From a virus (taxonomy: Duplodnaviria; Heunggongvirae; Uroviricota; Caudoviricetes), in IMG/VR virus record IMGVR_UViG_2859799533_000003, positions 1 through 23,535 of that record: DNA of 23,535 nucleotides; one strand, 5' to 3'. Below, piece by piece: positions 1 through 23,535 of the stretch; positions within the stretch are counted from its first letter, which is position 1, and every line of letters begins with the position of its first letter. The notes below the pieces were generated by a model, which was given only the letters and a program-made list of their open reading frames with translations, was not told the DNA's origin and made no database searches. The position numbers and the translations under genes were made by a program.

Positions 1-654
1 ATGGGACGCTGGCTTGCTGGCAGGCTCATGAAAGAGCTGGGGCTGGTCAGCTGTCAGCAGCCGACTCACCGGTATAAACGTGGTGGTCATGAACATGTTG
101 CTATCCCTAACTACCTTGAAAGGCAGTTCGCCGTGACCGAGCCAAATCAGGTGTGGTGCGGTGATGTGACCTGTATCTGGACGGGTAAGCGCTGGGCGTA
201 CCTCGCCGTTGTTCTCGACCTGTTCGCAAGAAAACCAGTGGGCTGGGCCATGTCGTTCTCGCCGGACAGCAGGCTCACCATGAAAGCGCTGGAAATGGCA
301 TGGGAAACCCGTGGTAAGCCCGGCGGGGTGATGTTCCACAGCGATCAGGGCAGTCATTATACGAGCAGGCAGTTCCGGCAGTTATTGTGGCGATACCAGA
401 TCAGACAGAGTATGAGCCGGCGCGGAAACTGCTGGGATAACAGCCCAATGGAACGCTTCTTCAGGAGTCTGAAGAACGAATGGATGCCGGTGGTGGGTTA
501 CGTAAGCTTCAGCGAGGCAGCTCACGCCATAACGGACTATATCGTTGGATATTACAGCGCACTAAGACCGCACGAATATAACGGTGGGTTACCCCCAAAC
601 GAATCGGAAAATCGATACTGGAAAAACTCTAACTCGGTGGCCAGTTTTTGTTGA
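1..654 (+). CDS. IS3-family transposase OrfB (integrase-core domain), C-terminal 217 aa; N-terminus lies outside window
   Basis: Six-frame ORF; IS3-family catalytic-core signatures ([10 protein letters not shown] ... [18 protein letters not shown]); ORF runs to window edge. Confidence 0.85.
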
Positions 655-662
655 CCACTTCA
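1..662 (+). mobile_element. IS911-like IS3-family insertion sequence, 3' portion (cut by window start); terminus at 662
   Basis: Transposase OrfB-type ORF 1-654 followed by terminal sequence ...gtggccagtttttgttgaccacttCA ending at 662; a reverse-complement copy occupies 22874-23535. Family name from recalled IS911 end sequence, not searched. Confidence 0.7.
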
Positions 663-779
663 GTTGGCAAAAGCCGAATCTCCGCTGGCTGTTAGCTTGT
701 ATGACTATATTAATGATGCTTCGGCACTGGCCTGCCTCATAAATTTGTCGCTGAACCCTTCAGAGGTAAGGGGGCGCAA

Positions 780-1004
780 ATGATCCGGAATATTTTCAAA
801 CGGTTTACCAATCAGACTTTCCGTTGTCCTCGTCCGGGTCAGTGGTACACCACGCCTGCAGGGCATGTTCTACGTGTTAGCCTGGTTGACCGTGAATGTC
901 AGAAGGTGATTTGTGAACCGCTGGGCCGTAATTACCGCATCAGTATGCCGCTTATAGCCTTTCGCTCCGGAAAAAACATGAAGCATCTCGGAGGTGCTGC
1001 ATGA
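780..1004 (+). CDS. hypothetical small protein (74 aa), translationally coupled to downstream replication gene
   Basis: ORF with upstream purine-rich SD (aagggggcgcaaATG); stop overlaps next start (ATGA at 1001-1004). No recognisable family. Confidence 0.35.
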   Translation: MIRNIFKRFTNQTFRCPRPGQWYTTPAGHVLRVSLVDRECQKVICEPLGRNYRISMPLIAFRSGKNMKHLGGAA

Positions 1005-20271: not shown

Positions 20272-20703
20272 ATGTTTCTGAAAACAGAACAATTTGAATA
20301 TAACGGTGTGTCTGTCACGCTTTCCGAATTGTCTGCGCTGCAGCGTATCGAGCATCTTGCCCTCCTGAAACGGCGTGCAGAACAGGCAGAATCCTGCGGC
20401 AACCTGCAGGTAAGCGTGGAAGATCTCGTCAGAACCGGCGCGTTTCTGGTGGCGATGTCCCTGTGGCATAACCATCCACAGAAAACGCAGTCACCGTCAA
20501 TGAATGAGGCCGTGATGAAGATAGAGCAGGAAGTGCTCACCACCTGGCCTGCCGATGCCATTGCCCGGGCGGAAGACGTGGTGTTGTGCCTGTCCGGGAT
20601 GATCGAAGCTGTTCGTCCGGATACTGATATTACTGAAGTGGCGAAAAATAACACGCTGACTGATGATGATTTTTCTGCGGGAAAGTCTTCGACGGCGAGC
20701 TGA
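20272..20703 (+). CDS. G: tail assembly chaperone G-like
   Basis: 143-aa ORF with GGAGG SD; matches recalled lambda G (MFLKTE.FE.NGV.VTLSELSALQRIEHLAL ... AMSLWHNHPQKTQ.PSMNEAV). Confidence 0.85.
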   Translation: MFLKTEQFEYNGVSVTLSELSALQRIEHLALLKRRAEQAESCGNLQVSVEDLVRTGAFLVAMSLWHNHPQKTQSPSMNEAVMKIEQEVLTTWPADAIARAEDVVLCLSGMIEAVRPDTDITEVAKNNTLTDDDFSAGKSSTAS

Positions 20704-21143
20704 ACTTTGCCCTCAGACTGGCGCGTGAGATGGGGAGACTCGACTGGCGCGCCATGCTTGCCGGGATGACATCCACCGAATATGCCGACTGGCACCGTTT
20801 TTACCGCACGCATTATTTTCAGGATACCCAGCTGGATATGCATTTTTCCGGGCTGACGTACGCTGTACTCAGCCTGTTTTTTTGCGATCCGGATATGCAT
20901 CCCTCTGATTTCAGTCTGCTTGTCCCCCGGCATGAGGAAGAGCAGGTGGAGAGGCCGGATGAGGACAAAATGCTGATGCAGAAAGCGGCAGGACTTGCCG
21001 GAGGCGTCCGGTTCGGTGGGGACGGAGGGCGCGATATTTTATCGTCTGCGGATGTGGCGGATGTCATGGTGGATGATGCCGCATTAATGATGGCTTCAGC
21101 GGGGATTCCGGGAGGTGTGAGATATGTCCCAGCCGGTTGGTGA
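20272..21143 (+). CDS. GT: G-T fusion tail assembly protein made by programmed -1 frameshift
   Basis: Slippery heptamer G GGA AAG in the G frame at 20679-20685; -1 frame continues GKVFDGELNFALRLAREMGRLDWRAMLAGM... matching recalled lambda T. Confidence 0.7.
20679..20685 (+). other. programmed -1 ribosomal frameshift slippery site (GGGAAAG)
   Basis: Heptamer in register with G codons (G GGA AAG), 6 codons before the G stop; conserved lambda-type G/GT recoding signal. Confidence 0.7.
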
Positions 21144-22873
21144 TCTTGTTATTGACCTGAGTCTGGATGCTGTCCGTTTCGATGAGCAGATGAGCCGGGT
21201 AAGGCGTCATTTTTCAGGTCTGGATACCGACGCCAGAAAAACCGCCAGTGCTGTTGAACAGGGCCTGAGCCGCCAGGCGCTGGCTGCACAAAAAGCCGGG
21301 ATTTCCGTCGGGCAGTATAAAGCGGCCATGCGAACCCTGCCCGCACAGTTTACGGATATCGCCACGCAGCTTGCAGGTGGTCAGAATCCCTGGCTGATCC
21401 TGCTGCAACAGGGCGGTCAGGTGAAGGACTCCTTCGGCGGGATGATCCCCATGTTCAGGGGGCTTGCCGGTGCGATCACCCTGCCGATGGTCGGGGTCAC
21501 CTCGCTGGCGGTGGCGACAGGTGCGCTGGTGTACGCCTGGTACCAGGGAGATTCCACGCTTTCAGCGTTTAATAAAACCCTGGTTCTTTCCGGTAATCAG
21601 TCCGGACTGACTGCCGATCGTATGCTGACTCTCTCAAGAGCCGGGCAGGCAGCAGGGCTGACGTTTAACCAGGCGAAAGAGTCACTGGCAGCCCTGGTGA
21701 ATGCCGGTGTGCGTGGTGGTGAACAGTTTGATGCCATCAACCAGAGTGTCGCGCGTTTTGCGTCTGCATCCGGTGTGGAGGTGGATAAAGTCGCTGAAGC
21801 CTTCGGGAAGCTGACCACTGACCCGACGTCGGGACTGATGGCGATGGCGCGCCAGTTCCGTAACGTGACGGCAGAGCAGATTGCGTATGTTGCACAGCTG
21901 CAGCGTTCCGGAGACGAGGCCGGGGCATTGCAGGCGGCGAACGATATCGCCACGAAAGGCTTTGATGAGCAGACCCGTCGCCTGAAAGAAAACATGGGAA
22001 CACTGGAGACCTGGGCGGATAAAACAGGGAAGGCATTCAAATCGATGTGGGATGCCATTCTGGATATCGGTCGTCCTGAATCCTCAGCGGATATGCTCGC
22101 CAGTGCGCAGAAGGCATTTGATGAGGCGGATAAAAAATGGCAGTGGTACCAGAGCCGGAGCCAGCGCCGGGGAAAGACCTCCTCTTTTCGTGCGAACCTT
22201 CAGGGGGCATGGGATGACCGGGAAAATGCCCGTCTGGGTCTGGCAGCGGCCACGCTGCAGTCGGATATGGAAAAAGCCGGTGAACTGGCGGCAAGGGACC
22301 GGGCTGAGCGTGAGGCGTCACAGCTGAAGTATACCGGAGAGGCGCAGAAGGCGTATGAGCGCCTGCAGACGCCGCTGGATAAATATACCGCCCGTCAGAA
22401 AGAGCTGAATAAGGCCCTGAAAGACGGAAAAATCCTGCAGGCGGATTGCAACACGCTGATGGCGTCGGCAAAAAAGGATTATGAATAGACGCTGAAAAAG
22501 CCGTCCGGTGTGAAGGTGTCTGCCGGTGAGCGCCAGGAAGACCGGGCGCATGCAGCCATGCTGGCGCTTGAAACCGAGCTCAGGACGCTGGAAAAACACA
22601 GCGGTGTGAATGAGAAAATCAGCCAGCAGCGCCGGGATTTATGGGAAGCGGAAAATCAGTATGTGGTCCTGAAAGAGGCCGCCACGAAACGGCAGTTATC
22701 TGAGCAGGAAAAATCCCTGCTGGCTCATGAGAAAGAGACGCTGGAGTACAAACGCCAGCTGGCTGAGCTGGGAGACAAGATTGAACACCAGAAGCGGCTG
22801 AATGAGCTGGCACAGCAGGCGGCGCGGTTTGAACAGCAGCAGAGCGCGAAGCAGGCGGCAATCAGCGCAAAAG
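21124..22873 (+). pseudogene. H: tail tape measure protein H-like: in-frame TAG at 22486-22488 and 3' truncation by the IS911-like element at 22874
   Basis: ORF 21124-22488 (N-terminus MSQPVGDLVIDLSLDAVRFDEQMSRV... as in lambda H) continues in the same frame after the TAG; the frame then runs into the IS terminus (tgaagtggtcaac...) at 22874. Confidence 0.75.
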
Positions 22874-23535
22874 TGAAGTGGTCAACAAAAACTGGCCACC
22901 GAGTTAGAGTTTTTCCAGTATCGATTTTCCGATTCGTTTGGGGGTAACCCACCGTTATATTCGTGCGGTCTTAGTGCGCTGTAATATCCAACGATATAGT
23001 CCGTTATGGCGTGAGCTGCCTCGCTGAAGCTTACGTAACCCACCACCGGCATCCATTCGTTCTTCAGACTCCTGAAGAAGCGTTCCATTGGGCTGTTATC
23101 CCAGCAGTTTCCGCGCCGGCTCATACTCTGTCTGATCTGGTATCGCCACAATAACTGCCGGAACTGCCTGCTCGTATAATGACTGCCCTGATCGCTGTGG
23201 AACATCACCCCGCCGGGCTTACCACGGGTTTCCCATGCCATTTCCAGCGCTTTCATGGTGAGCCTGCTGTCCGGCGAGAACGACATGGCCCAGCCCACTG
23301 GTTTTCTTGCGAACAGGTCGAGAACAACGGCGAGGTACGCCCAGCGCTTACCCGTCCAGATACAGGTCACATCACCGCACCACACCTGATTTGGCTCGGT
23401 CACGGCGAACTGCCTTTCAAGGTAGTTAGGGATAGCAACATGTTCATGACTACCACGTTTATACCGGTGAGTCGGCTGCTGACAGCTGACCAGCCCCAGC
23501 TCTTTCATGAGCCTGCCAGCAAGCCAGCGTCCCAT
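22874..23535 (-). mobile_element. IS911-like IS3-family insertion sequence, 3' portion (cut by window end), inverted copy of 1-662
   Basis: Terminus tgaagtggtcaacaaaaactggccacc at 22874; reverse complement of the left copy, with at least one substitution (Gly to Ser codon). Confidence 0.7.
22882..23535 (-). CDS. IS3-family transposase OrfB, C-terminal 217 aa (partial at window edge)
   Basis: Protein identical to ORF 1-654 except G29S. Confidence 0.85.

Follow-up and report, generated by a model that had tools for sequence, protein, structure and literature searches.

Inverted IS911 copies at the ends of a lambda-like prophage stretch very probably mark two different rearrangement breakpoints in a Shigella chromosome

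The viral record IMGVR_UViG_2859799533_000003 (positions 1 to 23,535; hereafter the window, i.e., the whole stretch of 23,535 nucleotides) begins and ends with inverted copies of the insertion sequence (IS) IS911. We consider it very probable that the window represents what is left of a lambda-like prophage, broken up by insertion sequences, within a Shigella chromosome, and that the two IS911 copies mark different rearrangement breakpoints, the right one within the tape-measure gene H and the left one in the chromosomal gene yecN. By exact-protein look-ups with ORFs (open reading frames) that span or border the junctions, the window was located at CP026866.1:1051202-1074736 in assembly GCA_002949955.1, the parts fetched being 100% identical; CP026866.1 is a finished chromosome of 4.68 Mb. 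Sister assemblies with the same junctions include CP026762.1, CP026867.1, CP026795.1, CP026797.1, CP026834.1, CP026766.1, and CP001063.1. The last of these we take to be Shigella boydii CDC 3083-94, and the Shigella assignment rests on this genome together with the sister-assembly set.

A sequence-only reading of this DNA had suggested that inversion between the two copies may explain why H is truncated and the downstream tail genes are absent. The general idea that IS elements account for the truncation is borne out, as H ends exactly at the right IS911. The proposed inversion is not supported as the cause of the missing genes, given that a remnant of the tail-fibre assembly gene tfa and the chromosomal gene potB lie colinear with H beyond the right copy, i.e., the arrangement left by a 12.4-kb deletion. 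The features that carry the argument are as follows (IRL and IRR, left and right terminal inverted repeat).

1-662, plus strand: left IS911 copy, 3' 662 bp (C-terminal 217 codons of orfB and the IRR end)
663-783, plus strand: 3' remnant of a Rha/ASH-family phage regulatory gene (39 codons plus stop), inner flank GTT
21124-22873, plus strand: codons 1-583 of 857 of the tape-measure gene H, interrupted by the right IS911, inner flank AAG
22874-23535, minus strand: right IS911 copy, 3' 662 bp, inverted

Identity and extent of the two IS911 copies

The reverse complement of 22874-23535 reproduces window positions 1-662 with a single mismatch at position 85 (G in the left copy, A in the right), which in the orfB frame sets GGT (Gly, left copy) against AGT (Ser, right copy); the sequence-only reading had noted at least one such substitution, and there is exactly one. 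Repeat similarity breaks off sharply at 663 and 22873. The IRR terminus of the left copy, ...TTGACCACTTCA, finishes at 662 and its complement, TGAAGTGGTCAA, begins at 22874, so both IRR ends face inward, again in agreement with that reading, which had called the termini IS911-like, near-identical, inverted, and inward-facing. Positions 1 and 23535 coincide with the ATG of a 217-amino-acid open reading frame (ORF) that gene callers place within IS911 orfB, and the copies appear truncated at 662 bp because the window was cut at this gene-call boundary, i.e., an artefact. In CP026866.1 each copy is a complete IS911 of 1249 bp, of which 587 bp, including the IRL end, lie past the window edge. The full-length copies are inverted, 22.2 kb apart, and 99.8% identical over 1249 bp, with two base differences (IS positions 364 and 672).

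IS911 is a member of the IS3 family that was first described in Shigella dysenteriae, has a canonical length of 1250 bp, and transposes by a copy-out-paste-in route via a circle intermediate. The element at both window ends is IS911 itself. It resembles the reference element in length (1249 bp), in the OrfA/OrfAB layout, and in its terminal inverted repeats, which begin 5'-TGAAGTGG in both copies (IRL, TGAAGTGGCACACTGAATTTGGCCACC; IRR, TGAAGTGGTCAACAAAAACTGGCCACC), and the repeat is 99.6-99.7% identical at the DNA level to E. coli RefSeq elements annotated as "IS3-like element IS911 family transposase". OrfA (100 amino acids) is intact in both copies, and an in silico -1 frameshift at the A AAA AAG motif (IS position 324) yields an uninterrupted OrfAB of 389 amino acids in each. 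Precomputed Pfam assignments give PF01527 HTH_Tnp_1 for OrfA and PF00665 rve together with PF13683 rve_3 for OrfB. Both full-length copies look functional.

The element is widespread, with matches in 4218 of 5426 complete E. coli genomes, and very abundant in related genomes, where at least five copies came from one 2-Mb contig. The variant bases at IS positions 364 and 672 (window 85 and 23451) occur as A/G, T/A, and T/G combinations at both the yecN and the H sites, with a distribution over the two copies that changes from strain to strain (loci L002-L006, L009-L016, L032, L035, and L043). Such shuffling suggests gene conversion or exchange among IS911 copies.

The right junction: a deletion of tail genes at the potB prophage end

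The right copy cuts H after nucleotide 1750, at codon 584 of 857, as the sequence-only reading had stated. Directly outside it, and in the same orientation as H, lie the last 22 codons of a tfa pseudogene; potB-potA-pepT-roxA come next, after an interval of about 230 bp. Among complete E. coli genomes, 918 have a lambdoid prophage whose right end (attR side) is this tfa remnant adjoining potB. In one of these prophages, that of E. coli MINF_9A (locus L018), the genes run H, M, L, K, I, J, lom, stf, tfa, methyltransferase, tfa remnant, and potB; the window H matches it up to L018 7601 and the outer flank picks up at L018 20004, with 12,402 bp absent. Given that H and the tfa remnant with potB are thus colinear across the right copy, the missing DNA was deleted in place and not inverted away. 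Sequence comparison shows what appears to have been lost at this IS911, i.e., the 3' end of H, M, L, K, I, J, lom, stf, and tfa. The flanks beyond both window edges, where the 3' end of H and genes M-L-K-I-J had been proposed to be sought, hold yecN on the left and the tfa remnant with potB on the right instead.

We infer that the loss arose in one of two ways. An IS911-associated adjacent deletion could have removed the 12.4 kb in one step, or RecA-dependent recombination could have taken place between direct IS911 repeats, one in H and the other in the tfa remnant.

H also carries a nonsense codon at position 455 (TCG to TAG, 22486-22488), upstream of the IS911 cut. As every contig with the H-IS911 junction shares it, H was already doubly inactivated in their common ancestor. 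Farther out, beyond roxA, CP026866.1 carries a P4-type integrase and small unknown genes (L002 16792-20438), where all sister strains have phoQ-phoP-purB; this change, about 6 kb past the right window edge, is another strain-specific breakpoint or an island insertion.

The left junction: a chromosomal breakpoint in yecN

The left copy had been described as abutting the replication module, which is roughly so. More exactly, it cuts a Rha/ASH-family gene, whose last 39 codons (664-783) remain just upstream of the 74-amino-acid gene and the HTH_36/DnaD_N replication-type gene. In related prophages the Rha/ASH-family gene is intact (386 amino acids at 17574-18734 of locus L001, E. coli SY033), and the window version is cut after L001 18613, between tatcccat and gttggcaaaag; the inner flank GTT on this side has no matching duplication outside the left copy. 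What lies outside is chromosomal yecN, without its first 66 nucleotides (the intact gene reads ...acgcaagc followed by gaacgacatc), and after it cmoA, cmoB, torZ, torY, cutC, yecM, and argS. In E. coli K-12, yecN and potB are separated by roughly 770 kb. The left copy is a chromosome-scale rearrangement breakpoint in yecN.

We infer, as the simplest reading of this junction, that an IS911 in the Rha gene of the potB-site prophage recombined with an inverted IS911 in yecN; the orientations agree. Such an event would reverse the stretch of chromosome that extends from the potC/potB prophage site to yecN, and would have left a reciprocal junction of the form ...CCCATGTT, IRL...IRR, AGCGAACGAC..., with the predicted edges ...TTTATCCCATGTT joined to TGAAGTGGCACAC and TTGACCACTTCA joined to AGCGAACGACATC.

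Flanks and target duplications

In window orientation, the left copy reads ...GCAAACGCAAGC, IRL...IRR, GTTGGCAAAAGC and the right copy TCAGCGCAAAAG, IRR...IRL, GGTGTTGCTGAA, i.e., ...CAAGC before IRL and GTTGGC after IRR on the left, ...AAAAG before IRR and GGTGTT after IRL on the right. Target-site duplications, which the sequence-only reading had proposed to look for beyond the edges, are found at neither copy: there is no 3- or 4-bp direct duplication on the left (AGC/GTT) or on the right (ACC/CTT in IS orientation). Two simple insertions, each with a duplicated target and with the 3' end of H directly beyond the right copy, had been named as the scenario that would refute that reading, and the flanks show neither feature. 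Target duplications are missing here because each copy occupies a rearrangement junction, and their lack bears on the history of these copies, not on their identity as IS911.

As a control, we sampled nine other IS911 copies in related genomes via the 217-amino-acid ORF (loci L019-L028, from PTES01000002.1 and CP026807.1). Two split a gene cleanly with perfect 3-bp duplications (TAT and TTT), and most of the remaining ones had no target duplication, which fits a genome where IS911 copies often recombine. The partner flanks of our two junctions were also sought at these other sampled sites and none matched; the sampled copies belong to other genomes. Documented routes to the loss of target duplications include IS-IS recombination and adjacent deletion (PMC11708052).

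Distribution among related strains

Both junctions recur in related strains, each with the same outer neighbor. Beyond the H-IS911 junction, the tfa remnant and potB follow in all five long contigs first recovered and likewise in the loci fetched later, and beyond the Rha-IS911 junction yecN follows in every contig that extends past IS911. Their spacing does not recur. In CP026762.1 the right junction lies at 0.84 Mb and the left one at 1.58 Mb, 739 kb apart and in opposite relative orientation, so the bracketed segment is not a stable unit; the 22-kb spacing was seen only in the CP026866.1 assembly, as was the ORF at the junction of the terminase small subunit (Nu1) fragment. The window as a unit was absent from complete E. 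coli genomes and phage records, with matches ending exactly at 663 and 22873. In CP026762.1 and several others, the left piece runs through IS600 and IS66 into unrelated chromosomal genes, and the right piece begins with IS66-ISSso6-terminase A and keeps terminase A through the decoration gene D.

The 22-kb bracketing is therefore specific to one assembly and the product of further IS-mediated rearrangements in the prophage centre. These central events (IS600, ISSso6, IS66-family, and IS3-family) would have deleted the lysis genes and terminase A through D, inverted the Nu1 fragment and, in most sister strains, separated the two prophage halves by about 740 kb. Starting from a CP026762.1-type arrangement, one inversion at the IS66 copies was considered as the origin of the central cluster and rejected: the IS66 copies are direct repeats there, and several steps are needed.

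Alternative explanations

The pair was rightly identified as a possible inversion substrate: the copies are inverted, 22.2 kb apart, and with two differences over 1249 bp valid for RecA, and the lack of an own target duplication at either copy would also suit an exchange between them. Nothing indicates, however, that a flip lies behind the present structure. Flipping the 22 kb in silico brings together yecN and H, and likewise the Rha remnant and the tfa remnant with potB, with no gene regained and with mismatched flank pairs (AGC/CTT and ACC/GTT) that restore no duplication. H and the tfa remnant with potB already stand as in intact potB prophages minus 12.4 kb, and a flipped isomer was found in none of the other contigs recovered with either junction. 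We thus regard recombination between the two copies as a highly improbable cause of the truncated H and the missing tail genes. It is slightly less improbable, albeit still very unlikely, that the pair is actively flipping in this strain, with both 22-kb isomers in cultures, and that gene conversion still under way between IS911 copies is what shuffles the variants. A cargo flanked by inverted copies of the same IS, with the IRL ends outermost, likewise recalls a composite transposon of the Tn10 type that travelled as a single unit. AGC and GGT, the flanks on the outer sides, nevertheless form no 3- or 4-bp duplication and derive from different loci (yecN and the prophage end with the tfa remnant at potB), each junction occurs alone where the two lie 739 kb apart, and no IS911-22 kb-IS911 unit with a 3-bp duplication was seen at another site, all of which makes this origin barely conceivable.

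An assembly mis-join within a central IS element of CP026866.1, linking distant prophage pieces, is the least improbable of these alternatives, though unlikely in itself. The arrangement, including the ORF across the IS66-Nu1'-IS3 junction, occurs in one assembly of the whole collection, its halves lie far apart in sister genomes, and the assembly carries homopolymer deletions typical of long-read consensus error. Against this, CP026866.1 is a finished chromosome, and the centre holds several unique junctions (IS600'/ISSso6 at 11150, IS66/Nu1' at 15174/5, Nu1'/IS3 at about 15450, and IS3/E at 16755/6), which a mis-join within a repeat would not generate; both IS911 junctions are, moreover, confirmed by many independent assemblies.

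Several points weigh against the preferred reading of an IS-broken prophage with two separate breakpoints. A common origin of 663-10211 (left piece) and 16756-22873 (right piece) in one prophage is not proven: they lie at different loci in most strains, and mosaicism is usual in lambdoid phages. The events in the central IS cluster are not reducible to a simple ordered series of inversions, and the deleted tail genes could persist elsewhere in the genome. The predicted reciprocal yecN/Rha junction had no match in genome_contigs, a collection from which the real left junction, used as a control, is also absent and in which this lineage is unrepresented.

Interior of the prophage

Set against the intact prophage of E. 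coli SY033 (L001), the window retains two blocks of prophage DNA, 663-10215 and 16756-22873, separated by IS elements.

780-5573, plus strand: lambdoid early/Nin-like region, with the 74-amino-acid gene, HTH_36/DnaD_N replication-type gene, PerC, Dam methylase, RusA, KilA-N, DUF968 (split), and antiterminator Q
6136-9948, plus strand: start of the late region, with N6_N4 methylase (split), tRNAs, STnc100 small RNA, DUF1737, and a SASA-family esterase (8254-9948)
10212-11150, minus strand: remnant of IS600, with 939 bp retained out of about 1264 bp, at which the left prophage piece stops
11150-12675, plus strand: ISSso6, IS110 family
12672-15174, minus strand: IS66-family element, ISEc43-like, with tnpA, tnpB, and tnpC
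15175-15452, minus strand: Nu1 (terminase small subunit) fragment, 278 bp, inverted relative to the rest of the prophage
15447-16755, plus strand: IS3-family element, 1.3 kb, that carries an ALIL frameshift pseudoknot and borders directly on the start of the major capsid gene
16756-21143, plus strand: head and tail genes (major capsid E, FI, FII, Z, U, V, G, and T)

Compared with the intact relatives L001 and L018, the window is missing int/xis/immunity, lysis, most of Nu1, terminase A through D, the 3' end of H, and the distal tail genes; the head region is missing the terminase large subunit, portal, protease, and decoration genes. With a nonsense mutation in H and with the lysis, packaging, and tail-tip genes gone, the prophage is dead.

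The left piece has about 90-92% identity to Stx2 phages, and stx genes are absent from it. Between Q and the methylase on one side and DUF1737 with the SASA esterase on the other lie tRNA-Met, tRNA-Arg(tcg), and tRNA-Arg(tct) (7235-7484), followed by an Rfam match to the STnc100 small RNA (7560-7764, 142 bits), a position that we take to be the slot where Stx-converting phages carry stx. DUF968 (4186-5175, as 213 and 110 amino acids) and the N6_N4 methylase (6136-7185, as 104 and 161 amino acids) are split in the window and intact in sister strains (329 and 349 amino acids, respectively).

In the window, an intact ISSso6 truncates IS600; on the pINV plasmid of the enteroinvasive E. coli RMDEC364 (L029), near virF, IS600 interrupts ISSso6 instead. 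The two arrangements are independent nested IS events.

The right piece differs from that of CP026762.1 by one substitution and four single-base deletions, all of the latter in G/C homopolymers. The deletions (sites at about 17789, 18298, 19161, and 19521, with a further site at about 5656) break FII, U, and V, and look like long-read consensus error rather than true pseudogenisation. An antisense ORF over V, G, and T (19599-20933, minus strand; 444 amino acids from its ATG, 479 stop-free codons) was rejected as a gene: it lacks any Pfam hit, and its frame, also open in L001 and L003-L005, is broken in L018. We regard it as a chance ORF, probably a codon-bias artefact.

Comparison with known systems

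The description of a segment bracketed by inverted repeats may be partly a by-product of window cutting, and in IS-rich genomes such as those of Shigella the outer flanks and target duplications of each IS copy should be read before a mechanism is deduced from their arrangement. The significance of the case hardly extends beyond annotation, and the points settled for this locus are the 12.4-kb tail deletion, the yecN breakpoint, and a dead prophage.

The present copies differ from simple IS911 insertions in one respect, i.e., they are without the 3-bp target duplication that the latter carry. With composites of the Tn10/Tn5 type, as generally known, they share the arrangement of inverted identical IS copies around other DNA; unlike in these, there is no flanking duplication, the outer flanks stem from different loci, and there is no sign that the unit ever moved. 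The right copy resembles the products of adjacent deletion or IS-IS recombination (PMC11708052), as it joins colinear prophage points with 12.4 kb gone and no duplication, and one-step insertion with deletion and recombination of two earlier direct copies both fit the present data.

A further close parallel is IS-mediated prophage decay and chromosome rearrangement in Shigella (PMC8072062; PMC1550401), a genus in which high rates of IS-driven rearrangement are documented (PMC8072062). The likeness extends to the many IS families within one prophage, the genes truncated at IS ends, the large inter-strain inversions with IS breakpoints, and the lack of target duplications at most IS copies. We find no substantive difference from this textbook process of ordinary, already known prophage decay and genome reshuffling, of which the window is one instance, involving the potB prophage site and yecN.

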